Shown here: positions 28,999 through 63,655 of the stretch, piece by piece
How the letters are laid out: each line of letters starts with the position of its first letter
How positions within the stretch are numbered: the first letter of the stretch is position 1
Source of the DNA: a bacterium
GTDB lineage: Bacteria; Hinthialibacterota; Hinthialibacteria; Hinthialibacterales; Hinthialibacteraceae
Assembly (NCBI GenBank): GCA_963662285.2
Contig: CAXXMV010000002.1
Span: forward strand, 1,504,001 to 1,568,000
Length of the DNA stretch: 64,000 nucleotides
Direction: 5' to 3'
Made by a program: the position numbers and the translations under genes
Notes under the pieces: model-generated
The model's database searches: none
What the model saw: only the letters and a program-made list of their open reading frames with translations
What the model was told of the DNA's origin: nothing

Positions 28999-30525
28999 AT
29001 GAAAAAGCAATCTAGGATAACAATACGGTTTTCTTTTATGCTTATATTTATGGCTGCTATGTATGCGTCAAGCGCGTTGTGCGCCCAGATGGTGGTAGAC
29101 CATAGCGGCGGCGGTGATTATGAATCCCTCAGCGCGGCTGTAGCGGACGCGCTCATTAATAACGGACCGGATGAGATTATCGTGAAACCGGGCGTCTATG
29201 TTGATGAGCAGAACGTCGGCGAAATTCTCTATTTTACCGGCGCTGATGATATCACCATCCGGGGAGAAGACCCTGCTGATCGTCCCATCATTGTCGTTGA
29301 ACCTAATCACGAAAATTCTGCAGCCGATAGCGTTGACGGCGTTATCATTCAAATGGGAGGGCAATTGACTTTTGAAAATTTGATTTTTGTACCTTCAGAG
29401 AATTTCACCATGGATAACGGGGTTGATGACCTCATCGCCGTCTTCAATGCGGAAGCCGAAGGAAATCAGTCTTGGCTTGAATTAACTTTCAGAAATGTTG
29501 TGATAACTCATTCAGACTTTGATAACCAACCCGTGACCACTGATGGCTTTGACGATCCCCGCTATTGGGATAACACCTTGCGGGATGACGCCATTAATAT
29601 AGATGTCAGCGCTGCACCCAATGATCACATCGATCTTCTTTTAGATAATGTCGTCATTACCGGTTATGGAACCGCTTCAGACTCGGATGCCTTGGTGCTG
29701 GATGGACCGGAAATCGTAGCCAGGATTACCGAAGGCTCGCGCTTCACCTACATTCGCCGACGAGGGATTTATGCTTATTCGGTAAAATATTTGATCATTC
29801 TGGGAACCGATGAAAATCCGGTGCTGATTTATGGAGCGGGAGAAACAATGATCCGCGCTTCAGACGGCTCCAATAACTGGAGTCATCTATGGTGCGTTGG
29901 ATTAAATGAGGGTGATGGTGGCATCAACACGGGTTTCGCCGCAAGGGTTGATCCGAATGGAATCGACTCGCTTGATGCGACCAATTGTATTTTTTCTACG
30001 GCCTTAAGCGATGGGCTATTCATGAATTTCGATTCAGAAGAACCGATTTTATGTGAGTTGCGTAGTTGTACGTTTTACAATGTGCCCGAATTAATTCGCT
30101 TTGGATTCGCCGGCGAACCGGGGCCATCGGCTAACGTCACAATGCGGGTTATCGATACAATCATCGATAACCAGGATTGGACTGCACCCAACGATGGCAC
30201 GTATTGGGCGCCTGAACCGACCGTGGTGCATTACGGCGACGGGGATAACACCTTGGCGCAGCTGACCTTTACAAATCTTGCCTATCGCACTCAGACTTTC
30301 ACTTCGAGCATGAGTGGATCAAGGTCTCCGACGACGGATGGCAACATCATAGAAATGACCGATTTCCAATTCGCCGCAACCGAACTGACCCGTGATAATT
30401 TCTCTGAATTCATGGTGGCGGAGAATAGCGACGCCCTTGCAGGAAAGGGCATCCAAGAGAGTTATCTCGGCGGCGCAAGATCTAAAGCGCACTATACGGA
30501 TATTATGGATTGGTCGATTTATTGA
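28999..30525 (+). CDS. Secreted acidic protein, probable right-handed beta-helix, with C-terminal motif TDIMDWSIY
   Basis: Signal peptide; GGGDYESLSAAV..A...I.VKPGVY start typical of pectin-lyase-like folds. Confidence 0.7.
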   Translation: MKKQSRITIRFSFMLIFMAAMYASSALCAQMVVDHSGGGDYESLSAAVADALINNGPDEIIVKPGVYVDEQNVGEILYFTGADDITIRGEDPADRPIIVVEPNHENSAADSVDGVIIQMGGQLTFENLIFVPSENFTMDNGVDDLIAVFNAEAEGNQSWLELTFRNVVITHSDFDNQPVTTDGFDDPRYWDNTLRDDAINIDVSAAPNDHIDLLLDNVVITGYGTASDSDALVLDGPEIVARITEGSRFTYIRRRGIYAYSVKYLIILGTDENPVLIYGAGETMIRASDGSNNWSHLWCVGLNEGDGGINTGFAARVDPNGIDSLDATNCIFSTALSDGLFMNFDSEEPILCELRSCTFYNVPELIRFGFAGEPGPSANVTMRVIDTIIDNQDWTAPNDGTYWAPEPTVVHYGDGDNTLAQLTFTNLAYRTQTFTSSMSGSRSPTTDGNIIEMTDFQFAATELTRDNFSEFMVAENSDALAGKGIQESYLGGARSKAHYTDIMDWSIY

Positions 30526-30567
30526 TGGGTAATTTATTGAGTTTGATTGTTGAATTAATTCAACTAA

Positions 30568-30602
30568 GCCCTCTGCTTCCATTTGACTCGGGAGCAGAGG
30601 GC
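30568..30602 (+). terminator. Stem-loop, probable terminator
   Basis: GCCCTCTGCTTCC...GGGAGCAGAGGGC. Confidence 0.55.
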
Positions 30603-30656
30603 CAGTAATTTATGGTTGTTTGTTTTTACATCTATGGAATACTTTAAGGTGAATAA

Positions 30657-31895
30657 ATGAAAAAGTTATTTGTTTTATACATTTCTATGGCATCAATGAT
30701 AATCTTCGCGCAATCATCTCAGGCCGTTGACCGCGACTATCATTTCGACGGTATCATCTCCCGCGAAGTTCTATGCAATTATCTTTCACGGTCGACCACC
30801 TTTTGCGAGTTGCTCAATTCCAAGCGGACTGAGCAAACCTTGGGCGGCGATGTGGATGACAATATCCGCATGTTGAAGAATACCGGCGCCAAGTTCGCTG
30901 GCCGCGCCATCTATATGTGGGGCGGCGAGACACGTTTGGAAGCTCTGCTGGCTGATGGCGCCGTAGTTGCGGAGAAAGTCCATCAAGCCGATCCGGATGT
31001 GGTTTTGCAAGCCGCCGTTTTTGAGATTGTCACAACTCAAGTCAACCAGATTCCTATCCCTGACTGGGTGTTTGAGGCATTCGACCTCGCTCCAGAGCAA
31101 CGCAATTTCAAATATGAAGCTATGTTGTATCCCGATGGAAACCGGGTGAATCATTGGCGCAATGGGCAATCGGTTCCTGATATGAGTCAAATGGAAACCC
31201 GTATGTGGTTCTTATATATTGCCGCAAGTTACATCAACATCGGCGTCGAAGCGATACATTTCGGCCAAGTGGAAATCATGGATGACCGCGACCCTGATCG
31301 CGCCTATTGGAACGACATGATGACCCGCGTGCGCCGTTATGCATCGAAAAATGCACGACGTCACATGGTTCTATGCGACGCTCATGTTCCCAGCGGGGGC
31401 ATTGTACTGCCCGATGGCAAACTGCTGTTCGATTTTCACTCCTTCCCGCTGCGCATTGAGGAGATTGGCGACAAACCTCAGCAAGGCATTCTTCTGGTTG
31501 GGTATCTGGACAGCATCTTCCTGCGCAGCAAGGGGGGAATTGCTCCCAGCGGCTGGAAATGCGACAGCCTGCCCTACATTGTTGAACTGGATAATTTCGG
31601 CGGCAGCGGCGGCCATGAAGGAGAAAACTACGGCCAGCATTTTTGCTGGGGTTATGACGAGATTACCTGGTTCGCCAATCAAAGCCAAAACTACCGCGAC
31701 CTGTGGCTCCACTACGCCTGGAACTGGATCCGCCGCACCGACTCCAACGGCTACCTGCAAATGCCTCTAAGCCGAACTCTATATCAGAAAGTAAATGGAA
31801 AAAACTGGTATTGGGCCAACAAACCCAGCGACGCCGTCCCCGGCGGCTTCAATCAAGAAGAGACCATCAAGGCTATATGGGCGAATGATGGATGA
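30657..31895 (+). CDS. Secreted hypothetical protein, possibly a TIM-barrel glycoside hydrolase
   Basis: Signal peptide, 412 aa, aromatic-rich; family not recognised with certainty. Confidence 0.65.
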   Translation: MKKLFVLYISMASMIIFAQSSQAVDRDYHFDGIISREVLCNYLSRSTTFCELLNSKRTEQTLGGDVDDNIRMLKNTGAKFAGRAIYMWGGETRLEALLADGAVVAEKVHQADPDVVLQAAVFEIVTTQVNQIPIPDWVFEAFDLAPEQRNFKYEAMLYPDGNRVNHWRNGQSVPDMSQMETRMWFLYIAASYINIGVEAIHFGQVEIMDDRDPDRAYWNDMMTRVRRYASKNARRHMVLCDAHVPSGGIVLPDGKLLFDFHSFPLRIEEIGDKPQQGILLVGYLDSIFLRSKGGIAPSGWKCDSLPYIVELDNFGGSGGHEGENYGQHFCWGYDEITWFANQSQNYRDLWLHYAWNWIRRTDSNGYLQMPLSRTLYQKVNGKNWYWANKPSDAVPGGFNQEETIKAIWANDG

Positions 31896-32013
31896 TTCGT
31901 TGCTAAAAAGAATCTTCATCCATTTTTTTGTCGACTCCTTATATACTTTCAATATAAACGATAATTTCTCAAAATAGCGCACAGGCAATTCCTATCGATA
32001 AAATCCCTCTGGA

Positions 32014-33723
32014 TTAACTGGTCTCGCGGGAAACGGTTGGTACAAAGGGTACCGGCCTGGCGATTCGAGTCAGCCCCAGAAGATCACGGGCGCGATTCAG
32101 CGAGTCATCGATATTACCAAACATATTGTCTTCGCCGATTTCATCGATCAGTCCGGATCGATGTAGGGTAAAGAGGGGCTGAGCGTGAACTCCGGAGAGG
32201 AGGAGGGTTGTCCCGTCGCGTTGACAGCGTTGATGGAATTCGCGCAATACATGAAGCCCTGTTGCATCGATGGCGAAGACATTGCGGAGGCGCAGGATAA
32301 TAACCTGTACGGGTTTGTCGATAAGACGCATGGTCTCCTTGAAGCGATCCGCCGCGCCAAAAAAGAAAGATCCTTGAATTTCAAAAACTTCTACGCCGAG
32401 AGGTACTTCGCGTAGTGCGATGGCGTTAGGATCGTCTGGTTCATCACTGTCACCCGAAAGTTCGCGGGTAATCATACTGACATTACTCACCTCGGACATG
32501 CGGCGAATAAAGAGGAGTGAAGCCAGAACGACTCCCACTTCGACGGCAACGGTCAGGTCAACGAAAACGGTCAGGGTAAAGGTTGTGAGAAGAACCATCA
32601 CATCGCTGCGAGGCGCCTTGAAAATCCGGATAAAATTATGAATTTCGCTCATGTTATAACTGACTACTACCAGAATTCCGGCGAGAGAAGCCAGGGGGAT
32701 TTTTTTTGCCATGGGGGCAAACAGTAATAGCAGCAGCGCCAGAGTGATGGCATGGATGATGCCGGCAACCGGGGTTTTGGCGCCGCTTTTCACATTGGTT
32801 GCAGTGCGGGCGATGGCGCCCGTAGCTGGAATTCCTCCGAATAACACCGAGGCTATATTGGCTATTCCCTGAGCGACCAGTTCCATATTGGGGCGGTGGC
32901 GGCCTCCGATCATTCCGTCTGCAACCGTCGCCGAGAGAAGCGATTCAATAGCCGCCAACAGGCCAATCGTGAAGGAAGGGGCGATCAAGTTTTTCAGTTG
33001 ATCCCAAGGAATGGAGGGCAGCGATGGTCTCGGTAGAACTCGAGGTAAATCGCCAAAACGGCTGCCTATGGTATCAATATCCAGTTGAAGAATTGACGCC
33101 GCCAAGGTTGCTACGATCATTCCCATGAGTATCGCCGGGAGGCGGGGGAAAAAGCGCCGGAGTAGCACGATGAATAAAATCGTGCCTAATCCAATGGCGG
33201 TGGCGGATAAATTGTATGAACCGGAATTATGGATATATGATGTCCATTTTTCGATAAATTCGGCTGGGGGCGATTCCATGCGCAAACCGAATAAATCCTT
33301 AACTTGGGTTGAAAAAATAACGACCGCAATTCCCGTCGTAAAACCAGTGGTGACGGGAAAGGGAATGAACTTGATTAATCCCCCCATCTGGAAAACGCCA
33401 AGAGCGATGAGAAATCCCCCCGCAAGCAGCGTACAGCAGACAAGCCCTTCGTATCCATACTGATTGACAATCCCCGCGACAATTATCACAAACGCGCCCG
33501 TCGGGCCGCCGATCTGAACGCGGCTTCCTCCCAACAAGGAAATCAGAAATCCTGCAACGATGGCTGTGAATATCCCGCGTTCGGGAGGGATTCCACAGGC
33601 AATCGCAAATGCCATAGCCAAGGGAAGAGCCACGACGCCTACGGTAATCCCCGCGAAGAGGTCAGACATGAAGAGAGACGAATTATAGGTTTTAAGGTAT
33701 GTCAGTAATTTGGGTTTTAACAT
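32014..33723 (-). CDS. SulP family inorganic anion transporter with STAS domain
   Basis: DLFAGITVGVVALPLAMAFA, QIGGPTGAF, GAIARTA, C-terminal FFGAA...IDATG. Confidence 0.95.
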   Translation of the reverse strand: MLKPKLLTYLKTYNSSLFMSDLFAGITVGVVALPLAMAFAIACGIPPERGIFTAIVAGFLISLLGGSRVQIGGPTGAFVIIVAGIVNQYGYEGLVCCTLLAGGFLIALGVFQMGGLIKFIPFPVTTGFTTGIAVVIFSTQVKDLFGLRMESPPAEFIEKWTSYIHNSGSYNLSATAIGLGTILFIVLLRRFFPRLPAILMGMIVATLAASILQLDIDTIGSRFGDLPRVLPRPSLPSIPWDQLKNLIAPSFTIGLLAAIESLLSATVADGMIGGRHRPNMELVAQGIANIASVLFGGIPATGAIARTATNVKSGAKTPVAGIIHAITLALLLLLFAPMAKKIPLASLAGILVVVSYNMSEIHNFIRIFKAPRSDVMVLLTTFTLTVFVDLTVAVEVGVVLASLLFIRRMSEVSNVSMITRELSGDSDEPDDPNAIALREVPLGVEVFEIQGSFFFGAADRFKETMRLIDKPVQVIILRLRNVFAIDATGLHVLREFHQRCQRDGTTLLLSGVHAQPLFTLHRSGLIDEIGEDNMFGNIDDSLNRARDLLGLTRIARPVPFVPTVSRETS

Positions 33724-33940
33724 TGGTTTAAGAGAAACAAAGCCGCAATTTATGAATTAAACTTCTTAACGATGTCACTCTAAACGAAATCGATTTCGTG
33801 CAGGAAATGGCATACTATTTGATGATCACTTTATTATTATCATTGATGATTTTGGAGATGCAATCCCCTTGTAGAGTACTGTATGAAATTTAATGAATAA
33901 TTTTCAATCGATTCTGATTGCTTCACCTTATTTCTAAAAT

Positions 33941-35221: not shown

Positions 35222-35318
35222 AAGAAGGTAAGTTCTGATGAATAAATATTCGGTTTTGCCTTTAAAAAGACCATTTAACGCGCTTTTTATAAGACGAGAC
35301 GTAAGGTAGTAAATAATT

Positions 35319-35358
35319 GGGAAATAACGACTTTCGGCAAAGAGAGTCGTTATTTCCC
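35319..35358 (-). terminator. Hairpin immediately 3' of the 6S RNA
   Basis: GGGAAATAACGACT / AGTCGTTATTTCCC perfect 14-bp stem. Confidence 0.65.
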
Positions 35359-35360
35359 GA

Positions 35361-35538
35361 ACTCCGCATTTGCCGTGTGTCAAAGCGTTTTGTTAAGACC
35401 TGACTCAGCAGGTGGGATCCCTGGCCCAAACCTCAGCCTCCCTCGCATGGAGGTATGACATCAATTGGGGATTGAGAGCCCGAGTAATGCTCATTATAGC
35501 CTTAAAACAACTTTAACCATCACCAACAACGCAGAGCG
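35361..35538 (-). ncRNA. ssrS: 6S RNA
   Basis: About 180 nt; 5' CTCTGCGTTGTTGGTG pairs with 3' CACACGGCAAATGCGGAG; conserved-looking 3' part CCCACCTGCTGAGTCAGGTCTTAA...ACGGCA. Confidence 0.75.
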
Positions 35539-35930
35539 ATTAAACAAATGATAGGCAATTATTGCCTGAGATTGATATTGTATCTCATTCATTTTATATT
35601 TTCAATTATCATTTCGATTAAGGAATGATGTTTTAGAGTGATTGATGTAAAATATTCATTGCGGCGTTTCGACAAAGCCAGTAAAGATTGGCTTTATCGA
35701 AGACTAAAGGCAATCTTTAACTAATATCATTTTGACTACCTCTCTAATGGAAAACAAAAAAAGTGATTTAACTTTTGCTATTCAGGGAAAAACAATAATA
35801 ATATTATGATAAGAGTATGATTTTGTGAGCAAAGTAGACAAAAGAAGATGCACTTGACTACTATTACTTATAATCTCATGATGAAACTCAATAGAATGAA
35901 GCATGCTTTTTTGAAAGGAGTGGTTTTAAA

Positions 35931-36452
35931 ATGAAAACCAACCGAATCCTAGTTGTTTTAGCTTGTCTTTCCGTGGTGATTGTTGGAGCGTGGGCGATTG
36001 ACAATCAGAATAACGCCGCCAGCGTCTCTCCGGCTGATTTTAATCCGGGTAATCCTAATGATTATCCTGTTCTCACAGATATTGATATCGATTTCATGGG
36101 TTTGGGTGACGTCGGCGAGATTTATATGATCGAAGGCATTGAAAATATGACCTCGGTTGAATTTAAAACAAATAAATATACCGCAGGCCCAACCTCATAT
36201 TCCCGTCTGGTTATGCATGGCGTCTTTGATAAAATTATGCGTGATTGGCGTGATACCATCATCGCGGGAACTACGACTAGACATGACATCGAACTGAATC
36301 TAAACAATAAAACCGGTAAACGCGTCCTACGCATTACCTTCTACGATGCGTTTCCAGTCAGTTTTTCCATCCCCCCTTTATCGGTTGATAACAACACGCG
36401 CTATATGGAGCGGATAGAATTCGTTTATACCGATTTCGACATCACTAATTAA
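35931..36452 (+). CDS. T4 gp19-like phage tail tube protein with N-terminal signal peptide
   Basis: C-terminal pattern W...I..G...R.DI.L.L....G..V.R..F..AFP....P.L.......E.IE..Y resembles gp19/eCIS tube proteins; MKTNRILVVLACLSVVIVGAWA signal; AAAGGAG RBS. Confidence 0.72.
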   Translation: MKTNRILVVLACLSVVIVGAWAIDNQNNAASVSPADFNPGNPNDYPVLTDIDIDFMGLGDVGEIYMIEGIENMTSVEFKTNKYTAGPTSYSRLVMHGVFDKIMRDWRDTIIAGTTTRHDIELNLNNKTGKRVLRITFYDAFPVSFSIPPLSVDNNTRYMERIEFVYTDFDITN

Positions 36453-36482
36453 CGCGAGCATTGATTTGACGAGGTGTCTCTC

Positions 36483-37709
36483 ATGAAAAAGATATTGTCT
36501 TTATGTCTGGCAATAATAGCAACGCTCGCGGTGACAGGATGGTCCGCGACGCCCAAAGCCGTAGATATGGTGGTGATTGATGGTGAATCGTCAGTATATG
36601 TTTTATATGATGACGGTTTTATTCAAACCACTGGTTTCGCGGTATCATTTGGTTATCCGGGAAATGCAGATGCCATTAGTCTTGCCATGACCAATACCAA
36701 AAGCGGGTATTATGTTCTGGAAAGCGATGGTACTTTGCATTCGTTTGGCGATGCAGTCGTTATCCCGAATCCTATGAAGGATAATGGCAAAAATCCATAC
36801 GTTGATATGGAATTGTATCAATATACCAATAGCCCCTATTTTCTGCGTCAGGACGGTTCCATCGAAGTATCCGGCGAGGCGGTTTTTTATGGCGAATTGT
36901 TGCGAAACAAGAAAGCCGTTGATTTGGAATTGACTAGAGATGGACTGGGTTATTACGTCCTCTACGAAGATGGTCATATCGCTTTCTTTGGAACAGCTGT
37001 CGATAGGGGATTCACCATATCCAGTTCAATCAAAGCAGTCGATCTCGAACTGGATGGAGATGGATACTTTGTCTGCCTGGAAGATGGCGGCATCCTTTCT
37101 TTTGGTTCTGCTGCGCAGATGCCTTTCCGCACCCGGCCATCAGAAGATGTCGTCAATATGACCATAACCCAGCAGGGATATCGCATCCTGACTGAATCCG
37201 GCGAAGTGGAGAGTTTTATCCGCGTGGATGCCCAGGGAATTTCAAATTGGTATGCTAAAGTATCAGCGCGAACGGTTAAGCCTCAGGCTACTAATACCCC
37301 GACTCCTACTCAGACGCCCAAACAGGATGTCAACTACTTTACCTATGAAGAGTCTGGATTTGCGGAAAAAATCATTGGTAAAATACCCGAAACGGCTTCT
37401 CTGCCGGTATCACTAAACAGCGGTTTCGCCAGCCTATATGGCGGCGGGCTTTTTGTTGCTGTTGCTGATGGAGAAGAGCAGCCGGTTCGCAAGATTCTGC
37501 TTTATAGCGTGGAAGAATCCACTGGCGCTGATTCGACTGGCGCGGTCTTCGCCCAGTTGTCTCCAGAACGCGGAGACGCCGTAATCCGTGGGATTTCATA
37601 CAGCAGCGTTGGACTCTATGTTGTTGTTCAAGATGTTAGCGGATTGTTTATATTCCTTATTGAAGGAAATTTTGAATCATCCGACATCAACGCTTTTTCT
37701 TTGTATTAA
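36483..37709 (+). CDS. Secreted beta-propeller-like repeat protein with Thr/Pro linker and C-terminal motif SDINAFSLY
   Basis: Repeats GYYVLESDGTLHSFGDA, GYYVLYEDGHIAFFGTA, GYFVCLEDGGILSFGSA; TNTPTPTQTP linker. Confidence 0.78.
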   Translation: MKKILSLCLAIIATLAVTGWSATPKAVDMVVIDGESSVYVLYDDGFIQTTGFAVSFGYPGNADAISLAMTNTKSGYYVLESDGTLHSFGDAVVIPNPMKDNGKNPYVDMELYQYTNSPYFLRQDGSIEVSGEAVFYGELLRNKKAVDLELTRDGLGYYVLYEDGHIAFFGTAVDRGFTISSSIKAVDLELDGDGYFVCLEDGGILSFGSAAQMPFRTRPSEDVVNMTITQQGYRILTESGEVESFIRVDAQGISNWYAKVSARTVKPQATNTPTPTQTPKQDVNYFTYEESGFAEKIIGKIPETASLPVSLNSGFASLYGGGLFVAVADGEEQPVRKILLYSVEESTGADSTGAVFAQLSPERGDAVIRGISYSSVGLYVVVQDVSGLFIFLIEGNFESSDINAFSLY

Positions 37710-37734
37710 CCTTGAAAACATTTGAGTTATGTAA

Positions 37735-37772
37735 ACGGGGCGGGCTAGCCGCATTACGGCTGCCCGCCCCGT
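37735..37772 (+). terminator. Intrinsic terminator of the tube/propeller unit
   Basis: ACGGGGCGGGC...GCCCGCCCCGT followed by GTTTATT. Confidence 0.7.
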
Positions 37773-37860
37773 GTTTATTCATGTCTCATCTTTTATCCTA
37801 AAGACGGTAGTTAATTTTGGTGAGTATGTGAGGCTGACTCACCCCGCGTAGGTGATCTTT

Positions 37861-37998: not shown

Positions 37999-38064
37999 TC
38001 GTTTTCTACAACTATGGATGTTCTATTTGACTTTATAATGATAACCTAACTGCTATTATTAGGA

Positions 38065-40037
38065 TTATTGCATCGCTTTCAATAAATCCTGGGCTTGTTT
38101 GTTATCGGGATCTAGTTCGATGGCTTTTTGTAGATGAGTCAGCGCTTTATCTTTCTGTTCCTGGCGCTGATAGACCATTCCCATAAATATATGCGTTTGG
38201 ACGTTGTCTGGGTCTTTATCAAGGACGAACTGAAAATCGGATAACGCTCCTTTTAAGTCTCCACCGAACGCTTCAGGAGTGAAGAACCGAACCGCTCCAC
38301 GTCCAATATGCCCGCCGATGTTTTCGGGATCAACTTCAAGCGCTTTTTCAAATACTTTGCCAATCTGCATTCCATATACCATTTTATCCATGGGTTCAGA
38401 CAGTTCCGTCAATTGTCCAAGGATGTCTCCCTTTTGGACATACAATTCAGCATTGTTGGGATTCTGGTTAATCGACTTATCCATCTCTTTCAGATCATCT
38501 TTTAACTGTTGGATAATCTTCTTGGTCTCTTCATCCAATGGTTTTTGCGGAGGGAAGGGCGACATCCCTGGAGGAGGACCGCCTTGTCCATCTTGCATAA
38601 ATGGTGGAGGGCCGCCGGGGTCACCGGGTCTTGGGCCGCCTGGCGGGGGGCCGCCCGGTTGGCCGAATATGAAACTGTCAATCTGGTCGCCTTCTTTTTC
38701 ACCGGCCAATTGCGCTTTGACCGATGCAATACGTTGTTCAACGAACGGCTTGAGGCCGATGATCTGCTGGCTGAAGATGAAAGCCTGTGGTTTGACCGGA
38801 CCTTCCATACTCTTCTGGAAATCCTCGAATGAAAATACCGGCTTGGAGTCGGCTTGCACAGAATCTTTGATATGCGAATATAAACGGTCTATATCGGCGT
38901 TCATGGCTGTTGGATTGAAGAAATCCCGAATGAATGAACTGAGGTAAAATTCAAAAATCACCCGGTATTTTTCGATATCCAGAATGCGCTGGATCATGAT
39001 TTTGTCGCCCATATAAGGCTTTTTGATATCAAAATTGAGTATCTTCTCCGGCGATACCACTTGCAGGTTGCCGAATGCTTCGTTGACATCCCAGGGGATA
39101 AATTCAAAACGGCTTGAAGCGGTGTTGTAATACAGATACCAGTTATGCCCCAATCCGGCGTAACTATCCAGATCGGTCAACAGGGTATTGACCGCCAGCG
39201 ACGCCAGAAAGCGGTCGACGTTCAGTTTCTGCTCGATTTTCGAGGTGAATTCCTTATCAGATGCATCATTCAGAAACTTGATGAACTTAATCAATTGTTT
39301 TGCGTCATCAATGCCGCCGGATTTTAATTCGTGGTCATGGGCGTATTCTTCCCAATCATCCCCCCGGTATTCCAGATCACGCATGATCTCGAACTTAAAC
39401 AGACCACCATCAGAGTTGCCGAAACGGTCTTCCAGGAAAGGACGGTTGACTTGTTCGACCACCACGAAGAAACCCAGATGCTATTGGGGCTTGCCTTCAA
39501 TGTTCAAATAGATATTGGCGAAATGGCGCGCGGCGCCGGTACCGCTGCTTTTTGGTATAAATCATAAGTCAACTTATCTCGCAGCATGGATGGATCGCGG
39601 AAGCAGTTGATGAAATTCAGTTTGGTGAATCCATGAAAAATCTGTTCATCATTGTATCGGTTAAAATCTATTTTCAACGGCTTCTTCCCGTCAGGGGGGA
39701 TCATCATGATTGAAGCGTTGCCCCGGTAGCGCACGCCGACGCCTTCGTAAACCGCGCCGCCGCAGGTTACCGTTGCCGGGACGTAGGGAAACTCTTGAGA
39801 GAACATACTGCGCGAGCTCATTTTGGTCATATCGCGCTGTTGGGGCTTGGGTTGCATGTTCTGGAAATTTTCCGCCGTCATCTCGATGGTGAAAGTGAGA
39901 ATTTCCTGATTTTCGAAGACATAATTGTAATCCGCCACTGTCGCAGCGCTGCTGTTCATTGGTATAGTTAGGCTTAAAACCAATGCCAGAGCGGTAAAAC
40001 AGATTGCTTGATGCTTGGTTGAGCAGTAATGTCGCAT
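38065..40037 (-). pseudogene. CotH kinase family protein with C-terminal TPRs, disrupted
   Basis: VGVRYRGNAS, K.PLKIDFN, DPSMLRDKL; 1-nt frameshift near 39525, in-frame TAG at 39481-39483, then VVEQV, HNWYLY, FIPWDVNEAFG. Confidence 0.85.
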
Positions 40038-43859: not shown

Positions 43860-45049
43860 ATGAAAGAGATCAGACCTGACAACGGGATTCCTGTATATTT
43901 GTATATCGATCAGATCGAAGATGGAGCGTTGGAGCAGGCGGAGATGTGTTCGCGGCTGCCTCATGCTTTTCATCATATCGCCATCATGCCCGATTCTCAT
44001 CAGGGTTACGCCATGCCGGTGGGCGGGGTGATGGCTATGCAGGGCGCGGTGATGCCCAATGCGGTGGGGGTTGATATCGGCTGCGGCATGGTCGCCGCCC
44101 GCACTGACGCCCCGGCGGTTCAGGTTCGTCCCCGGTTGGAAGCGTTGGCTGAGGAGATATTCTATCGCATCCCGGTGGGCTTCGATTGGCACAAACAGCC
44201 TCAAGAAGGCGAAGCGATAGACCGTATCAAGGCGAAAGGTAAAGCCAAGCGCCAATTGAAAGAGCGTATGCCGGTGGTTATGCAGAGAGCCGATGACGCG
44301 GCGCGTCAACTTGGCACCCTGGGCGGGGGGCAATCACTTTATCGAGTTGGCAGATTGATGAGGATGGCCTGTTGTGGGTGATGCTCCATTCCGGGTCGCG
44401 CAACATAGGTCTGCAAATCGCCAATCATTACCATAAAATCGCCAAACAGTATTGCTCCAGTCTGGGCATGGGGCTGCCCAAGGATTACGCTTTTCTACCT
44501 TTGATACTGCCCGAAGCGCAACAGTATCTGGCCGAAATGCAGTGGGCTATGGATTTTGCTATGGAGAACCGCCTCCATATGATGGATCGCGTTTTTGAAG
44601 CCATGAACGATATCCTGGGGCGGGCGGTTCGCAATACTCTTGAAGTGCGCACCCACCATAACTACGCCGCCTGGGAAAACCATTTCGGTGAAAAAGTCCT
44701 GGTGCATCGCAAAGGCGCGGTTCGTGCGGCGCCGGGTGAATTGGTCACCATCCCCGGATCGATGGGAACCTCCAGTTATATCGGGCGGGGCATGGGATGC
44801 GCTGATGCTTTCCTGTCATGCTCGCATGGCGCCGGACGCGCTTTAGGCCGTAAGCAGGCCAAAAAGCAGATATCACGGGATGATTTTGAAGAGCAGGTTA
44901 AGGATATTATCGTCATGAGCCCCAAGCGAAGCGCTATAATCGATGAAGCGCCCGGCGCTTATAAGGATATCGAAGACGTGATGCGCCAGCAGCAGGAATT
45001 GGTGACTATAGAATTTCGTTTAAAGCCATTGGCGGTGATTAAAGGGTAA
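43860..45049 (+). pseudogene. rtcB: RtcB RNA ligase with two +1 frameshifts
   Basis: MPDSHQG, GVDIGCG, GTLGGG/NHFIEL/QIDEDG, HSGSR, HHN, HRKGA, SCSHGAGR; extra G in 44325-44330 and at 44349-44350. Confidence 0.9.
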
Positions 45050-48414: not shown

Positions 48415-48677
48415 CGTTTGTTTTACGCAATTGAATAAAAATGGAATCGGTTGTTCTGTTATATGTACAAGTAATATTAATAGAATATTGTTGACTTGTA
48501 TTTTAGAGTATCTTTGCAGTGTTGAATTAAAGAGAAAAAACACTGCCATATTTTTGAAAGGAGGTGGATTTCTTAATAACTCATTGAAATGTCGAGTATC
48601 TAAGAATTTTCATATTCGATATTTGGGTAATCGATATATGTTGATGTGTCTAAACAAACATACTTTTGGAGGATTAC

Positions 48678-50097
48678 ATGAAATTAATAACAATAAGTTT
48701 ACTTCTGGTTTGTCTTTTTGCGCTTCCAGTTATGTCGCAGGATGTAGAAATTAAGCCGGTTTTTGAGCATCTGGCCAAAAACGGCGTTCCCGGATTTCCC
48801 TTCATGGTGGCTCAGCAGGGTTTAAACGATGATTCTTCAGAAGGCCATGCAGACTATGACATGATTAGTTCATTTGTGCGGTATGATGAAAACCGTTTGC
48901 TACTCTATGTAGTTGAAAACGGAATCGATGAATCCGCCGCTGATCATGACGCCGCCATGGCAGCGGAATTTCCCGACCGCACTATCTGGTGGATAAATCC
49001 AGTGACTGGCGCTCCGATGGGTATTGCGCTTAACGTGGGATTGGAACCATGGCCTAATTCCGACTTTTATATTCAAAAGACGACAGGCCAGCATCCTGAC
49101 GGTCCTACTAGTGATCGTAGTTGGGCTTTGGTTGACGTTTATCCCGTTATTTCAGTTGATGGAGATGGATATCTATATCTGGGTAATGTTCATAACATTA
49201 TTCGCTACACCCTGGAAGGCGACCAATTCGGCAACCCCGAAAAAGTATGGAACCGTCCCGAAGAAGAGACCACCAACCAGCATTACCGGGCATGGCGCAT
49301 TTGGGATATGAATGTCATTGGTTCGGGAAACAACAAGAAAATGACCATTGACGCCAAGTATTGGATTGACTTGGGTGGAACGTGGTATCTATCTTCTACA
49401 GATGGCGGTAAGAGCTGGACATGGGAAGATGAGTTCAATAGCGGCGGCGGTTCGAGCGTACCAGTTGAATTTGAGTTGTTTGGAGACAATCTGGAACTGG
49501 TTTTCAACACTGCTTTTCCCTGGACGTGATGGTGGAAGAGGCAACACGCCGCTACGCCGTTATTTACGTCCGGTAGGTTCGCCTGAGGAATTCCAGGAAG
49601 AAGTCGCCGAACTTTGGAAACCGACGCGTGATCCAGCGATTGAAGATATGCCAGAACCTGATTCGGTGACATCCTTATATCAGGGTTGGTCCAAATGCGA
49701 CGTAGCCGCTTATCCGGGGATACCATACATAACGGTTTGCACCATTCCCCGTTGGCAGAGCCGTTTGGATGACTATGGCGACCAGGCTTTTCCAACCGCA
49801 TGGTTGGCGCTTCACAGCATCGATGAAGATTTGAATGGTGATGGCGCTGAAGGCGACTTTGTTGCTGGTTACTCAATCGAGCATTTTGATGCCGATGAAC
49901 CGGGTATGATGGATGCCGGAGCGCCTACCGATCCCTGGGTTAATATCTATTTGAGTGAAGTTAATATGTATGTCCCTGAAGGTTTCACCAATGGCGCTTT
50001 TGAAATTCTATGGAGCGGTGGTGGAATCGGATATGGCCGTTATGTTGTCGGCGATGTTGAAATTCCGACTGAATTAATGAATTGGCAACTGTTCTAA
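48678..50097 (+). CDS. Secreted acidic protein split by a +1 frameshift near 49515-49520; C-terminal motif TELMNWQLF
   Basis: Signal peptide, GGAGG RBS, Asp-box SSTDGGKSW; removing one base of TTTTCCC joins TAFP to GRDGG. Confidence 0.75.
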
Positions 50098-54234: not shown

Positions 54235-54305
54235 ATTGTTTAAATAAATGGTTAATTCATGTTTTTATGGAATAGTTTTGTGGATGATAGGGCATTGGTT
54301 TTGTT

Positions 54306-56084: not shown

Positions 56085-56249
56085 AATAGGTTCTTTTTTT
56101 TATGTTTTTGGTATGACTGATGAGTCGGTAAAAAGTGAATGAAAGACGAAACTCAAGTTATATCTTGTATATAAGTAAATTAATATCCGCAAATTATTAT
56201 TGAGGTCATAAAACAAGTTTTGGATTTTTTACTGTTTCGTCATAACTGG

Positions 56250-56936: not shown

Positions 56937-57001
56937 TCTTCTCTCCTATGTATATTATTTTATGTTCAGGGTATTAATATACATAGTCCGTATTAGCGTT
57001 A

Positions 57002-57018
57002 TGTTAGGGAATTGTTAA
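57002..57018 (-). promoter_or_regulatory. Pho-box-like direct repeat upstream of the regulator
   Basis: Minus-strand TAACA-ATTCCC-TAACA with 11-bp period. Confidence 0.5.
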
Positions 57019-57105
57019 TATATTATACTGATTCCAAAACTTTGTAATATATTACCTTTGATAAAGCAGGATTTTTGAAAAGAATTGATTGCATATCGCT
57101 CTAAA

Positions 57106-57138
57106 CAAAGGGTGAAGGATTATCTCCTTCACCCTTTG
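57106..57138 (-). terminator. Intrinsic terminator
   Basis: CAAAGGGTGAAGGA...TCCTTCACCCTTTG. Confidence 0.75.
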
Positions 57139-57174
57139 AGCATCTGATTATTAAGTGGTTGTTATAGAAATGCT

Positions 57175-58548: not shown

Positions 58549-58647
58549 GGTTGCGATATCCTTTCGCGATTAAGTGAATCTATTTAAGCAGTATTAACTT
58601 GAAAAATCAAAAAATTTGTACGGTTTAACGGTTGATTCTCTTTATGC

Positions 58648-60612
58648 TTATTTAATCGATTCGATCCATAATTGATGAATCTTTTGTTTCTTCCCGTCTT
58701 GTGAGGCGCCGTATTCCTCCATTAATTTAACGAATCCATTATAGACTCTTTGGGCTGTATCGTGATAACTTTGATCAGCCGCGATTTGAGATTTTTCCGG
58801 CAATGGCGCCAGGTTTAACTTGGAACGTTCGGTGATAACGTTGAAGCATTTAATCCCCAAACGGCAATGCGCCGCCTCGTAACTCTTATCAAGTTGATTC
58901 TTTTTCAGCGCCTGATGCATCTTGAGCAGTTTTTCGCCATTAGCGCTTAAATTTGAACTAGATAGCGAACTTTTCTTAACCTTTTTATCAGGAATATCTC
59001 CTACTCCATCACCCAATGAAATATGGATATCAGAACGGGGTGAAAGGCTCTCATAAGGCAGTTTCACAGATTTTGCGTCAAAATTTGCCCATGATTTTCC
59101 GTTGATGGTGACTTTGCTGATATCGCCTGAGCCGCTGGTGGATAGATAGAGTTGTTTTTCGCCTGTCCGTATGGGGAATTTTTGCTGGAATTGTTTTATG
59201 GCGTTTGGTATATGGGGAATCAGTTTAACGCCTTCGGCGTTATAAATGTATTCAAACAAACCGCGAATTATGGCCGCCGAAGGACCAAATGTATCGTAAC
59301 ATAAGTTGATCGGCTCCTTGGGTTGGTATACCTTGGCGCCAAAATCAACCAGCGGATTATCCATGCGGAACTGGCGGGCGAAAGTCAGCAGATGCTTCAT
59401 AGAGCGGCGGTTATCTTCATATTTGCCGAGACGGCTGTAGCCCATCATCATCCGCGCTTCGCATGTGGACCAATGTCCTCCATTAACCCATGTTCCGAAA
59501 CTCCACAACCAGTTTCCGGTTGGATTGATATACATATCATCCAGTCCGGGGTAATTGGCGATGATGAAATCATGGGGGCGGAGTCCGGGGATGGACTTGA
59601 TTTTTTGATAGATTTTTTCGGCCTGCGCGTCGTCAACAACGCGGAAAGCGATGGCGTCGTGATTGGGCGAGGCTTCGAAATAACCATGTTTATCAGCCCC
59701 ATAAACGCCATGACGGGTTCCATTGGGATCAATGGATTTTACAAAATAACCGTCTTTGGTCATAAGAGATGGTAAGCCTTGTTTGGCTAATTCACGCCGT
59801 TTTGAGTAGAGTTCGATTTTATCTGTTCTACTCAGCATTTTTTCCAACTCAATTAAACGATCCAAAGCGGCGATGGTGGTGATGGAAAGACCAGCCAGGT
59901 AGGCTTGGGCGAATGTCCCATCCTCTTTCTTATATCCCGCATAACTGGGCGCCAGAAGGTTGCTGGCCGGACCGCCGAGAAACAGGTTGTTTTCCGGGTC
60001 TCTGCGGGTTTCAAGGAAATTGGCGCAGCGTTCCAACTTGGGCAGGTACAGGGCTATGGCTTCTTTATCGCGGCTGACCAATAGCAACTCCGCTTGCATT
60101 AGTAAACCAGCGGCGGTAAATTCCATGCCCCAGTCGTGTATATCCGTACGTCCGTCGCCTTGTTTGGCGATGAAATCATTGGGACGGGCGGCGTCGCATA
60201 GGGAGCCATCCGGTGGAATCCACTTAAAATCCCGGTGGGGCCTAACCGTATGGCCATCGCCCATCTGACTGAACCAGAGGTCTTGCGAGTTCTGTAGAAA
60301 TGTTATAAATGGCTCCTGAAGAAAAGGAAGAGAGCAGTAAGTGGTTCCATAACTATTTTGAATCCACCATGCATCCCAGGTCGGGCCTTCCACCAGGCCG
60401 TTCCAGGACGGGGTGTACATCATCGACATGTTCTGGAACTCAGGATCGGGTTCAAACATGCGCCGGGCGATATCCAGCAACTCAAGATATTCCACGTCGC
60501 CTTCGCCGGAAAAGTATTGCCCATCAAATGATTGCGCTTGAGCGTATCCAACAGTGATAGCAATAGACAGTATGAACAGGCTAATACAAAAACAATAGAT
60601 AAATCGTTTCAT
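58648..60612 (-). CDS. Secreted (alpha/alpha)6 glycoside hydrolase-like protein
   Basis: Signal peptide, WVNGGHW motif, C-terminal L.PHIP and beta-sandwich segment. Confidence 0.65.
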   Translation of the reverse strand: MKRFIYCFCISLFILSIAITVGYAQAQSFDGQYFSGEGDVEYLELLDIARRMFEPDPEFQNMSMMYTPSWNGLVEGPTWDAWWIQNSYGTTYCSLPFLQEPFITFLQNSQDLWFSQMGDGHTVRPHRDFKWIPPDGSLCDAARPNDFIAKQGDGRTDIHDWGMEFTAAGLLMQAELLLVSRDKEAIALYLPKLERCANFLETRRDPENNLFLGGPASNLLAPSYAGYKKEDGTFAQAYLAGLSITTIAALDRLIELEKMLSRTDKIELYSKRRELAKQGLPSLMTKDGYFVKSIDPNGTRHGVYGADKHGYFEASPNHDAIAFRVVDDAQAEKIYQKIKSIPGLRPHDFIIANYPGLDDMYINPTGNWLWSFGTWVNGGHWSTCEARMMMGYSRLGKYEDNRRSMKHLLTFARQFRMDNPLVDFGAKVYQPKEPINLCYDTFGPSAAIIRGLFEYIYNAEGVKLIPHIPNAIKQFQQKFPIRTGEKQLYLSTSGSGDISKVTINGKSWANFDAKSVKLPYESLSPRSDIHISLGDGVGDIPDKKVKKSSLSSSNLSANGEKLLKMHQALKKNQLDKSYEAAHCRLGIKCFNVITERSKLNLAPLPEKSQIAADQSYHDTAQRVYNGFVKLMEEYGASQDGKKQKIHQLWIESIK

Positions 60613-60830
60613 TGTTTATCTCCCCATTTATGAAATATGTACTAACCTATCATGTAACGATTTGATTTTGTAGTACTGCGTCCATCAGTGAAGCTGATGG
60701 TATAGAGGAGGATGGTGGGGATAAAGATGACAGACTCTTCGGCTTTGAGGTTAATCGGTGTAATCTTATATGTGAAATGTGATGAATGGATTACTTGACG
60801 TATGGTTTGATATGATGAGGTCGCCCTATT

Positions 60831-61079
60831 TTGATAGATAAACAAATTCAAGAAATGTTGGATAAAGCCTGTAAACTTTTTAATCGAATACAAAATGCAT
60901 TAGAACGAGAGAGGAAGATATCTCTCGATTTAACGGAATGCGTTTATGTTTTGCAACAAATGAAAATATCCGTTATTTATCGTATAAAAGATAGTAGATA
61001 TTCGAAAGAAGACCTTGCCGCGATTAATGAAATCAGCCTTATGGCGATGAATGCAGAGAATATAATTAAAGAATTATAG
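60831..61079 (+). CDS. Small hypothetical helical protein
   Basis: GAGG RBS, TTG start, 82 aa amphipathic sequence in an intergenic gap. Confidence 0.5.
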   Translation: MIDKQIQEMLDKACKLFNRIQNALERERKISLDLTECVYVLQQMKISVIYRIKDSRYSKEDLAAINEISLMAMNAENIIKEL

Positions 61080-61263
61080 AGTATTTTTCATGACATAGTT
61101 CTATTTCACGATTCGAAAAAGCCGGAAAAGACCGGCTTCAGAAACGTTTGATCTGTCAGGAATCTCAAATCTGATTGATTAGTCGAAATGTAATCCCACT
61201 CTAACTCCCCCAAACCTGGGGGGATAATTTGTCGCGTCATACAGCTAAACTTTTACCGTTATC

Positions 61264-62328
61264 TTAATCTATGCATGAGTATTTTTTCTCAGGAACCATG
61301 GCATGTCCCCAGCCTAGCAGTTCTTCATTTTTTAAGCCCTTTTTCATCTTCAAGAAGCCTGTTTCTACCAAAGCGCCAATATGGAAATAGACCGCATCAA
61401 CGTCTGAAGCAGGATTATCGGGATAATGACTGAAACCTCCATCCGGTTTTCTGCACTGCAATATCCACTTGTTGGCTTTGTTATAAACCTTTTTCAGTCG
61501 TGGATCATTCGGGTCGCCCAATTGGCGCAGGATAAATAGTGCGTCGAAAGCAGCGTGGACATCCCAATCAGGTGGATGAAGATGCCAGGAACCGTCATCT
61601 TTTTGATCATTGATCACGCGGTCAACCATGGCTTGGGCTTTGGGGGTGGGCTGCCCGATGAGACGGAAATAATGAGCGGCGTGGAAAGTCGAAGCGACGT
61701 GATTTCTTAGATAGCCATCTTCCGTCTGTTCGCTCAATATCAATTGGCGCATTTTTTCATCAATCCGGGCGGGCATTTTTTCGCCTAAAGCATTGAAAAA
61801 ATGCGGAAAGAAACTGGTGGTGTAGAGCGGTAGTTCCTTGAATCCACTGCCCTGGAAAAAATGTTCGATAACCGGCATGGGGTCATACTTGGGTTTGGCG
61901 CCTAACAGGCGCAGAGTTACTAACCCCTGGACGGTATTATAAAGTTTGGCCAAAGGAGCATTTGGGTCTAAATCGCCGGTTACAGCGTAAAAGGCGCCAT
62001 CCGGTTTTTGCAGAGAGAGCATGAACTTTTTAGTTTTATCGGGGTAGGGAAGCGACCAACCGAAAGTCTGGCAAAGAATCGTGGCGTAGGTTGGCGCGGC
62101 TATGCCGGATAAAAAAGTATCCGAATTACCTTTATAATCTGGATCAATCCCCGGTCTGAACGAGCCGTCTTGGTCAGCCACCTGGTAGAGGAATGATTTT
62201 ACGCCCTCAAGAATTTTTGCCGGGCTTACATCCTCTGGATTTTGCGCACTTGAGGCCAGGGCGAAAGAATATGCGCCTGTACATAGAGCGCATTTTTTTA
62301 TGAATTGTCGGCGGTTTGCATGGATCAT
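61264..62328 (-). CDS. Tat-exported prenyltransferase/squalene oxidase repeat protein
   Basis: NRRQFI; QKPDGAF, QTEDGY, QKDDGSW, RKPDGGF repeats. Confidence 0.8.
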   Translation of the reverse strand: MIHANRRQFIKKCALCTGAYSFALASSAQNPEDVSPAKILEGVKSFLYQVADQDGSFRPGIDPDYKGNSDTFLSGIAAPTYATILCQTFGWSLPYPDKTKKFMLSLQKPDGAFYAVTGDLDPNAPLAKLYNTVQGLVTLRLLGAKPKYDPMPVIEHFFQGSGFKELPLYTTSFFPHFFNALGEKMPARIDEKMRQLILSEQTEDGYLRNHVASTFHAAHYFRLIGQPTPKAQAMVDRVINDQKDDGSWHLHPPDWDVHAAFDALFILRQLGDPNDPRLKKVYNKANKWILQCRKPDGGFSHYPDNPASDVDAVYFHIGALVETGFLKMKKGLKNEELLGWGHAMVPEKKYSCID

Positions 62329-62452
62329 GATTAGACTTTACGCTGCTTAATATTTCGCAGTTTCCCCTTCATATTCATAATAACAAATAGAACAGTAGTG
62401 TGACCAATCCGTTTTGTCGGGAGTTGTTATTATTTACCCCTCACCCTACCCC

Positions 62453-62625
62453 CAATGTCATTAAGTTAAGGAATTTCGCCCCATCGTTGGTGGCTTAATC
62501 AAGGGCTGAGCGCAATGCGCTCTTGCCCTTGGCACCCATACAATGTCATTGATGACTTCAGTTATTGGAATATCCCTCTCTCCCGGTGCTGGAGAGGGGA
62601 CAAGACGGCTAACTTAATGACATTG
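62453..62625. mobile_element. 173-bp IS4-like MITE inserted in a REP
   Basis: Perfect 16-bp TIR CAATGTCATTAAGTTA / TAACTTAATGACATTG; flanking 10-bp repeat ACCCTACCCC / ACCCTAACCC. Confidence 0.82.
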
Positions 62626-62689
62626 ACCCTAACCCTCTCCCGGCGGGAGAGGGAATTTTGTTACCTGACATTATTTGTTGGACATAGTA

Positions 62690-63655
62690 CTAGTGAATTT
62701 CCCAGTGATCCACGGAGGTTACCAGGTCTGAATCGATTCCGGTTGCGAAGCCCATGCGATAAGCGCCGGTTGTTTCATGCTTCCCGGAACGCCACATTTT
62801 GAATTGTCCATTGCCATCATACACAACGCTGGGATGGTAGTTGCGATTACCGTTCCATGAATCGATTGGTCCGGCGCCGCCTACTACCCCGACCGGGTCT
62901 TCAATCACATCAAATTCTAATCCATCGGTAGAGCGCAGATATTGAATACCGGGAACATCATAAGCCCGGAAACCCCAGGCCCGGTAATCATTCTCGCTAA
63001 TCTGTATAACAGCGGTAATGTGTAGTCCATCATAGAAAACGGCGAAGTCGTACCATTGCCATGTGATTCCATCGTTAGATTCCATGATGGATGTCTCGGT
63101 TCCTGTTTTTACAAACATGCGGTATGGCGCCCCAGGGAAATCAGGGTTGTATAAAACTGCATGTCCGTCGGGAGAACTGAGAGATTGGCCTTCTTCGGTT
63201 GCGTCGGACATATCAAGGGCCTGGTTGTTTTCCCAGGCGACGCCGTCTTTGGATTCAGCAAATCTGACATGATCGCCCAAGTCGCCCCCACGTCCAAAAA
63301 AGTAGGCTTTGTATGGTGATTCCCAGCCAGTATTGTACAAAATGAAACCACGGCCTACTTGAAATTCTTCGAATTTAATGCCGGTGGTCAATGTCTCATT
63401 GACCCAGTTGACGCCGTCATCGGATTCAGCATAGGTGACCAAGTCAATGCTGCCCTGCTCGTACCATATCTGATATTTCTGCAAATCCGGATTCCAGATG
63501 ATATTCGCCATATACGAACGGTCGCCATCCGGCATGGGCATGTCCAGAGGATTGTCGGGATAATCGGTCCATACGATTTCGGCCTGTGATGGACAGATGT
63601 ATAATAGCGATAAACCTAATACAGCGATTCCTAAGACAAAACATTTTTTAATCAT
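62690..63655 (-). CDS. Secreted five-bladed beta-propeller (GH32/43/130-like) with C-terminal motif TSVDHWEIH
   Basis: AGGAGG RBS, signal peptide, repeats AESDDGVNW, AESKDGVAW, ESNDGITW, RSTDGLEF. Confidence 0.8.
   Translation of the reverse strand: MIKKCFVLGIAVLGLSLLYICPSQAEIVWTDYPDNPLDMPMPDGDRSYMANIIWNPDLQKYQIWYEQGSIDLVTYAESDDGVNWVNETLTTGIKFEEFQVGRGFILYNTGWESPYKAYFFGRGGDLGDHVRFAESKDGVAWENNQALDMSDATEEGQSLSSPDGHAVLYNPDFPGAPYRMFVKTGTETSIMESNDGITWQWYDFAVFYDGLHITAVIQISENDYRAWGFRAYDVPGIQYLRSTDGLEFDVIEDPVGVVGGAGPIDSWNGNRNYHPSVVYDGNGQFKMWRSGKHETTGAYRMGFATGIDSDLVTSVDHWEIH

Follow-up and report, generated by a model that had tools for sequence, protein, structure and literature searches.

A Nine-Residue C-Terminal Tail on Unrelated Acidic Exported Proteins: A Candidate Sorting Tag of a Probable Candidatus Hinthialibacterota Lineage

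Introduction

C-terminal sorting tags of exported proteins have repeatedly led to new machinery, as with the sortases, the exosortases, the type IX secretion system (T9SS) and myxosortase. The C-terminal domain (CTD) of T9SS cargo is a folded domain of roughly 70-100 residues, and the WxL domain of Firmicutes surface proteins comprises about 150 amino acids (aa). Short forms also occur: the type 1 peroxisomal targeting signal (PTS1) and the encapsulin cargo-loading peptides consist of about 3-10 C-terminal residues behind a flexible linker and are transferable among unrelated cargo. Here, we analyzed a bacterial DNA stretch of 64,000 nucleotides (assembly GCA_963662285.2, contig CAXXMV010000002.1, positions 1,504,001 to 1,568,000; "the window"), in which four secreted proteins end in a similar nine-residue tail. 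In the original prediction, this tail was taken as a lineage-specific secretion or surface-attachment signal. No earlier description of the tail was found in literature searches. It is, to our knowledge, the shortest of its kind for Sec-exported proteins, with neither a transmembrane (TM) helix nor a folded domain.

Three further groups of described signals are comparable with it. Tripartite signals (LPXTG, PEP-CTERM, GlyGly-CTERM, MYXO-CTERM, and others) are lineage-restricted and occur on dozens of unrelated exported proteins per genome. The beta-signal of outer membrane proteins (OMPs) is given as polar-x-G-x-x-[aromatic/hydrophobic]-x-[aromatic/hydrophobic], read by BamA/BamD (PMC10945584). 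The third group is the lectin-like bacteriocins (Llp: LlpA/B, L-type pyocin), which are defined by a single or double monocot-mannose-binding-lectin domain and a C-terminal peptide of hypervariable sequence (bioRxiv 10.64898/2026.09.25.754295). According to the same preprint, this peptide pairs with strand 1 of BamA. Its core reads [aromatic/hydrophobic]-x-[aromatic/hydrophobic]-x-[aromatic/His], in which Trp is conserved and the dyad never forms the very end, and 152 distinct peptides are counted among 246.

The OLB16/SURF_12 lineage had been misclassified as Omnitrophica (PMC10066038). OLB16 was named Candidatus Hinthialibacterota and described as a glycan-degrading organism rich in sulfatases and hydrolases with signal peptides (PMC9324843). 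Relatives of the present DNA are, by name, metagenome-assembled genomes (MAGs) of 'Candidatus Hinthialibacter sp.' and 'Candidatus Omnitrophica/Omnitrophota bacterium', and the lineage that carries the tail is probably Ca. Hinthialibacterota (OLB16). This phylum is uncultured, and we know of it from metagenomes only.

Results

The Tail Forms a Distinct Class of C-Termini

The four tails were located by translating the open reading frames (ORFs), and all of them stand at the gene ends where they had been predicted. The tails and their genes, assigned to families F1 to F4, are as follows (positions in the window).

28999..30525, plus strand: F1 gene, 508 aa, signal peptide, weak pectinesterase-like N-terminus
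30496-30525, plus strand: tail TDIMDWSIY and stop codon (peptide 30496..30522), matrix score 23.8
36483..37709, plus strand: F2 gene, 408 aa from MKKILS, signal peptide
37680-37709, plus strand: tail SDINAFSLY and stop codon (peptide 37680..37706), variant with F for W, matrix score 5.2
48678..50097, plus strand: F3 gene, split into ORFs 48666-49529 (signal peptide) and 49348-50097 (tail)
50068-50097, plus strand: tail TELMNWQLF and stop codon (peptide 50068..50094), matrix score 17.2
62690..63655, minus strand: F4 (short form) gene, 321 aa, signal peptide
62690-62719, minus strand: tail TSVDHWEIH and stop codon (peptide 62693..62719), matrix score 23.4

The starts of F2 and F4 were set by database copies, at 36483 (408 aa) and 63655 (321 aa), respectively.

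The window and 15 related loci (L001 etc.) were examined together, 326 kb in total and 262 kb for the loci alone. ORFs of at least 90 aa were divided into two sets, 247 that do not overlap ("genes") and 472 that are overlapped ("shadow" ORFs). Since family F4 served as bait for fetching the loci, its 13 members are not independent. The scores above were obtained from a 10-residue C-terminal position matrix, built from 37 homologue tails of the four families with equal weight per family. The pattern of the original prediction, [TS]-x-[ILV]-x-x-[WF]-x-[IL]-[YFH] at the C-terminus, holds, and the matrix gave a better one, T-x-[VI]-x-x-W-[SEQ]-[LIV]-[YFH]-COOH, to which SDINAFSLY is a weak variant. 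When the earlier pattern was widened for counting by also permitting V at -2, it matched 15 of the 247 non-overlapping ORFs versus 1 of the 472 shadow ORFs, and this single match was the downstream piece of F3 itself.

The matrix was also run over all 14,028 10-mers directly before stops in six frames. Scores of 17 or more were reached by 19 of them, every one in a frame of at least 109 codons. The highest score below that class was 8.7, in a frame of 21 codons, showing a bimodal score distribution. In 100 kb of E. coli K-12, no tail was found in 216 frames of at least 100 codons (best score 0.83), and 94 far homologues of F2 from other lineages had none either (best score 0.5). The matrix detected tails in families absent from its construction, at L004 7207-8100 (18.9), L013 19859-20881 (18.1), and L015 1443-2630 (18.0), and further ones outside the matrix families at L002 273-1601 (17.5, with one extra residue) and in an apparent remnant at L005 12202-12531 (19.5). 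C-termini fall into two classes, and the tail is real and above chance.

It is hardly conceivable that the motif arose as an artefact of chance or composition, or that it is a DNA repeat lying across gene ends. The post hoc origin of the first pattern is the one point that speaks for an artefact. The six-frame, shadow-ORF, E. coli, and other-lineage controls were all empty, and the new families found by the matrix are independent of those used to build it. At the DNA level, Thr at -9 is encoded by ACA (3), ACG (7), ACC (4), and ACT (3), Ser at -3 is drawn from the TCN and AGY codon families alike, and the tails are followed by TAA (12), TGA (7), or TAG (2) and then by unrelated DNA. Because codons and stops are this diverse and the downstream DNA is unrelated, selection acts on the peptide and not on the DNA; a DNA repeat at gene ends was excluded on these grounds.

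The Tail Is Conserved in Orthologues of the Four Families

The ends of the homologues were compared within each family.

F1: 10 clusters, window protein included; 10/10 end in T-x-[VI]-x-x-W-x-[LIV]-[YH]
F4: 16 clusters; 12 exact, 2 with an extra residue (…WEIHE, …WEIHP), 2 decayed (…WSLISR, …WKQR)
F3: 17 matches from 1.84 billion representatives; tail in 16, the 17th match being fragmentary
F2: 18 full-length orthologues; 9 end in [SAT]-x-[VI]-x-x-F-[ST]-[LI]-[YF], 9 keep the aromatic only

Pairwise identities among the F3 proteins range from 26 to 47%, with a median of 31%. In right-aligned F1, F3, F4-short, and F4-long sequences, W at -4 was present in 100% of members, and T at -9 was present in 100% in three of these four groups. 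The last residue was His in 26% of family-weighted tails. Immediately upstream, positions -10 to -16 are variable in F1 and F3.

The Tail Is Separable from the Carrier Folds

The carriers had been described as mutually unrelated, and this was confirmed. All-against-all BLAST of the 247 ORFs gave no links between carrier families except for two variants in L015. When the 130 residues preceding the tail were compared by hhalign among five families, the probability was at most 0.8% in all 10 pairs, by which a shared cryptic C-terminal domain was rejected. The linker before the tail is short, variable, and rich in Gly, Pro, and Asp. In F3, the stretch that joins the last conserved block (GYGRY-x-[VI]-G) to the tail contains alignment gaps, giving a linker of variable length.

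The long forms of F4 (541-546 aa) carry about 220 aa added after the propeller and close, at their new terminus, with a full tail (scores 23.9-27.7). At the old tail site, which is now internal, only the W is kept and the score falls to between -2.3 and 7.0. The motif therefore tracks the terminus. Over the whole sample, 17 of the 247 ORF termini scored 10 or more, versus 7 of 87,525 true internal windows, a terminal excess of about 900-fold. The raw internal count was 11 of 87,525, four of which were tails plus 1-3 extra residues, and the seven true internal matches reached a maximum score of 13.4.

These results bear on the possibility that the tail is just the last structural strand or helix of each carrier's own fold. 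In its favor, the W of F4 is invariant even in the internal segment, and the aromatic of F2 persists in decayed ends, the F2 tail closely following the last hydrophobic strand. However, at least eight families without a detectable common domain carry the same nine residues, the linker length in F3 differs, the F4 long forms combine a full-score new end with a decayed old site, and the motif is about 900 times commoner at termini than inside proteins. We consider the own-fold explanation improbable. Judged from these sequences, the tail is an autonomous peptide module bound to the extreme C-terminus and separate from the fold.

Carriers Are Exported, Acidic, and Mostly without Known Domains

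Signal peptides were judged by a crude in-house score, which was positive in 14 of the 17 high-scoring gene termini. Two of the three signal-negative carriers (L004 22-873 and L013 19859-20881) are truncated where a contig or locus ends, and the third (L015 1443-2630) is frameshifted, with a signal-like upstream piece. All carriers whose N-terminus is complete have a signal peptide.

The acidic composition that had been noted was also borne out. The net charge difference (D+E-K-R) per residue was 0.087 in 10 carrier-family representatives. Other signal-positive proteins (n = 59) had 0.015 (Mann-Whitney p = 3e-6), and signal-negative ones (n = 95) had 0.012. As proposed, there is neither a TM helix nor a basic tail. 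Of the 21 tail proteins, 20 have no 15-residue segment with a Kyte-Doolittle mean above 1.01 among their last 40 residues, and 19 have neither K nor R in the last 10.

Scans with Pfam, NCBIfam, PADLOC, and PHROGs gave no carrier match other than PPDK_N (L015 3865-6903) and a sub-threshold PPC (L002 273-1601), and PDB sequence searches returned nothing significant for four new carriers. Weak PDB matches related F1 to a pectinesterase-like beta-helix, and F4 to a carbohydrate-binding protein and a GH130 enzyme (propeller). For F3, a BNR/Sortilin-type propeller is a lead only (Atlas score 0.91). The F2 protein has an N-terminal repeat region common to actinobacterial proteins and a lineage-specific C-terminal half. 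Proteins without the tail in the same DNA include GH2, GH3, GH38, sulfatase, PQQ propellers, a Met-zincin, and Tat proteins, and the window's own Tat proteins and PQQ propellers lack it as had been stated. There are 4 carriers in the 64-kb window and 4-7 non-bait carriers in the 262 kb of loci, a density that suggests, by extrapolation, tens of carriers per genome.

Split Genes, Variants, and Further Carriers

The original prediction placed a Sec signal peptide on all four window proteins. It is present for each, and that of F3, MKLITISLLLVCLFALPVMSQ, lies on a separate upstream piece (48678-49529). The two F3 pieces overlap around a T4C3T run at 49514-49521, near which there is a one-base frame discrepancy. 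Intact F3 homologues of 440-507 aa align to both pieces, so F3 is regarded as one gene with a one-base frame discrepancy. Two other genes of the window are split into two overlapping ORFs in the same way: a CotH kinase-like gene at 38065-40037 on the minus strand (profile positions 1-68 and 85-300) and an RtcB gene at 43860-45049 on the plus strand (1-153 and 181-426). Given these parallel cases, an assembly error is as likely as real decay, and the position of the F3 break inside a homopolymer run suggests an assembly indel over a pseudogene.

SDINAFSLY of F2 is a probable variant and an uncertain member. As its score of 5.2 falls within the six-frame noise, its membership rests on conservation inside F2. 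Promoter and terminator scans around the tail genes gave results equal to the shuffled expectation.

In L015 (1041-6903, plus strand), three genes in a row end in the tail or in variants of it (…TPVSIWEVY, …VSIDSWVQY, and …TDVTSWLFF). The ends VSIDSWVQY (8.5) and TDVTSWLFF (8.6) are at noise level by score alone. The last two genes share a C-terminal domain, and the third encodes a 1012-aa protein that joins a lipoprotein-like leader to a PPDK_N domain of the ATP-grasp type, a domain one would not expect in an exported protein. The minus-strand frame at L005 12202-12531 has 109 codons and no plausible start, ends in …CTPVIDWSVF (19.5), and lies beside helicase and Eco57I-type methylase genes; it resembles what an insertion would leave of a truncated carrier gene.

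Protein P0013 (514 aa, on a contig of 1,873 bases) has a Porphyromonas-type peptidyl-arginine deiminase domain in its N-terminal half. Its C-terminal half corresponds to the final 59% of F1 and has the tail as well, with 63% identity to the query, and P0013 is either a fusion or an assembly chimera. In L003, a deiminase gene adjoins F4.

Genomic Surroundings of the Tail Genes

The sole conserved neighbour of the tail genes is a Tat-signal prenyltransferase/terpene-cyclase-toroid gene by F4, at window 61264-62328 (minus strand) and L004 1094-2200 (plus strand). LptF/LptG are encoded in L014, implying a lipopolysaccharide (LPS) outer membrane to be crossed. Genes of the T2SS-G/pilin-like type (type II secretion system, T2SS) are frequent (window 10629-11393, also L002, L003, and L007) and too common to be tied to the tail.

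Upstream of the F2 tail gene, a gene at window 35931-36452 (plus strand) ends 21 nt before the F2 ORF. It encodes 173 aa with a signal-peptide-like N-terminus and a T4 gp19/contractile-injection-system (CIS) tube domain (Pfam 1.8e-10), with weak NCBIfam CIS and PHROG tail-tube matches; a Sec-type leader is odd on such a protein. The plus strand at 13476-20359 encodes ferredoxin-like, B12-type radical SAM, DUF116-polyprenyl synthase fusion, prenyltransferase-toroid, and squalene-hopene-cyclase-like proteins, an apparent isoprenoid cluster. A BlaI-type repressor gene followed by a BlaR1 M56 peptidase gene is found at window 3087-6347 (plus strand) and again at L001 3664-6002 (plus strand) in a related genome, and the window copy of the peptidase is fused to PD40/TolB-like propeller repeats. 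Rfam searches identified a group II intron D1-D4 segment at 1600-1836 (plus strand, 119.6 bits) and a 6S RNA at 35357-35540 (minus strand, 66.3 bits), and no tRNA genes were found in the window.

Discussion

A Candidate Address Tag

We favor, with modest confidence and from sequence evidence, the reading that the tail is an autonomous tag, read in trans, which fixes the final place of unrelated acidic Sec-exported proteins of Ca. Hinthialibacterota. A trans-read signal fits because the peptide is short and invariant, is set off by a flexible linker, needs a free end, and is found on unrelated exported cargo. In this scheme, the carriers would cross the inner membrane via Sec, as their signal peptides suggest. 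The tag would then be read by a trans-acting receptor common to the carriers, located in the periplasm or the outer membrane, and would have to lie at the free C-terminus or within one residue of it. This reading would set the final place of the carrier, which would either pass across the LPS outer membrane or dock at it. As a best guess, the tag may be read by beta-strand augmentation on an Omp85/BAM-type barrel or its partner. We infer the existence of the receptor, its identity, and the final location of the carriers. A more specific proposal, which is possible and put forward tentatively, is that the tail serves as the address for a route of outer-membrane translocation or surface display that has so far gone unrecognised, with an Omp85-family or other receptor, in which barrel-assembly chemistry would be reused for folded, soluble, acidic, non-barrel cargo.

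Several observations weigh against a trans-read tag. No receptor, translocase, or peptidase for the tail was found in the loci examined, and no Omp85, PDZ, or S41 gene in the 326 kb. Apart from the prenyltransferase/cyclase gene by F4, no conserved neighbour of the tail genes was detected by BLAST of the 247 ORFs or by Pfam searches of first 25 and then 120 flank proteins. Carrier enrichment was measured on 326 kb of loci, a scale below one proteome, and the window taken alone is a weak test (tail in 4/20 signal-positive versus 0/27 signal-negative proteins, p = 0.027). The tail is not a general export route, because many Pfam-recognised secreted enzymes lack it. The internal W of the F4 long forms and the F of degenerate F2 orthologues are retained, so the aromatic may also be structural in these two families. 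To these are added the departures from the beta-signal and from the Llp cap described with the comparison below. Of the signal that was first predicted, the autonomous, lineage-restricted, and trans-signal properties have stood, and the machinery that would act on it has not been found.

Alternative Functions

The tail may instead be recognised in the periplasm by a protease or chaperone of the PDZ or tail-specific type (Prc/Ctp, HtrA-like), acting as a degron, a maturation signal, or a stress signal. Free C-termini are the ligands of PDZ domains, and the Y-x-F ends of OMPs activate DegS. The extreme C-terminal position with at most one extra residue tolerated, the hydrophobic or aromatic last residue, and the export of the carriers agree with this. 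On the other hand, the His that ends 26% of family-weighted tails would be unusual in a PDZ pocket, and conservation reaches back to -9 (T) and -7 (V), beyond typical PDZ ligands. The rationale for a degron on many stable-looking enzyme-like proteins, kept at 26-47% identity in F3, is not obvious, and the lack of PDZ and S41 genes in the 326 kb counts here too. A protease or chaperone site appears unlikely.

An extracellular assembly element is also unlikely. In such a role, carriers would dock mutually or on a scaffold (an S-layer-like coat, a multi-enzyme complex, or donor-strand-type pairing) with no translocation involved. Surface-layer proteins are often acidic and lineage-specific, as the carriers are, and several carriers resemble carbohydrate-active or carbohydrate-binding folds. 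Clustering also agrees with assembly: paralogous short and long F4 genes lie side by side in L002, and the three tail or variant genes in L015 stand in a row. However, Pfam scans of the window and loci showed no cohesin-like or scaffold gene, and nine residues are short for a stable dock. Assembly also overlaps with the trans-read tag, for which surface docking is one of the outcomes.

The carriers might also be bacteriocin-like weapons whose tails block the BamA of competitors, as described for Pseudomonas Llp. Both combine soluble lectin- or propeller-like domains with a short Trp-containing C-terminal peptide ending in an aromatic residue or His. We regard this as highly improbable: the Llp peptides are hypervariable (152 distinct of 246), whereas the tail hardly varies from one genome or family to another. 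Each genome has, moreover, many carriers, with orthologues kept across the lineage in housekeeping-like neighbourhoods, and no immunity-like genes were noticed around them.

Whichever function applies, the proteins that bear the tail are a coherent group, very acidic and family-less. If the tail acts as an address label, it offers a handle for receptor discovery via phylogenetic profiling, allows prediction of which proteins these glycan degraders release or display at the surface, and may show that beta-signal-type recognition is usable for soluble cargo. If it is merely a protease or assembly motif, it would still provide a compact, transferable peptide-receptor pair.

Comparison with Known Systems

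The tail had been predicted to differ from all known C-terminal signals. For most of them this stands, and the beta-signal spacing and the Llp peptide have proved comparable.

Like the tripartite signals, the tail is a lineage-restricted C-terminal tag on unrelated exported proteins. Those signals consist of a signature motif, a TM helix, and basic residues, whereas the tail has no helix and no basic cluster, and the CTERM models of NCBIfam did not match any carrier. With the T9SS CTD, it shares the C-terminal position and Sec-exported, often glycan-degrading cargo of unrelated folds that crosses the outer membrane. However, only about 10 residues are common to the tail carriers, and neither Por_Secre_tail nor type B CTD models of Pfam and NCBIfam matched a carrier, in agreement with the prediction that no T9SS-type domain is present. 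Substrates of the type I secretion system (T1SS) lack an N-terminal signal peptide and often have RTX repeats, whereas the carriers have Sec-type signal peptides and gave no RTX match in Pfam scans. The likeness to WxL-domain proteins is limited to the W-x-L tripeptide, with no Pfam WxL match in carriers. PTS1 and encapsulin peptides resemble the tail in being short, at the extreme C-terminus, behind a linker, and on unrelated cargo. They act in the cytoplasm and have no sequence likeness to the tail, whose carriers are exported, and an encapsulin or microcompartment cargo peptide was rejected by the signal peptides on the carriers.

The Llp of Pseudomonas resemble the carriers in joining a soluble carbohydrate-binding-type body to a short C-terminal peptide with Trp in the dyad, in having an aromatic residue or His as the cap, and in a dyad that is not last. 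The Llp cap usually lies two residues past the dyad, whereas that of the tail follows directly. The Llp peptides are also hypervariable and aimed at other cells, unlike the nearly invariant tail found on many families per genome. The carriers further differ in having Sec signal peptides, and Pfam scans detected no lectin domain in them. Because the Llp peptide pairs with BamA, the bacteriocins nevertheless provide a precedent for a non-barrel protein that offers a beta-signal-like tail to an Omp85 protein.

The OMP beta-signal is likewise C-terminal and found on Sec-exported proteins of diderms. Its spacing is identical to that of the tail, T-x-V-x-x-W-x-[LIV], and both have an aromatic-x-hydrophobic dyad and an aromatic end. 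Unlike the beta-signal, the tail has Val or Ile in place of Gly in 99% of family-weighted tails, adds one residue (Y/F/H) after the dyad, and is polar at -3 (S/E/Q) and -5 (D/N/E), without the alternating hydrophobics of a barrel strand. A flexible, variable linker also parts it from the carrier fold. No OMP family of Pfam or NCBIfam matched the carriers, and the weak structural hints are of a soluble beta-helix and propeller. By analogy, the tail appears closest to beta-signal-type recognition, as an unproven variant of it on soluble cargo.

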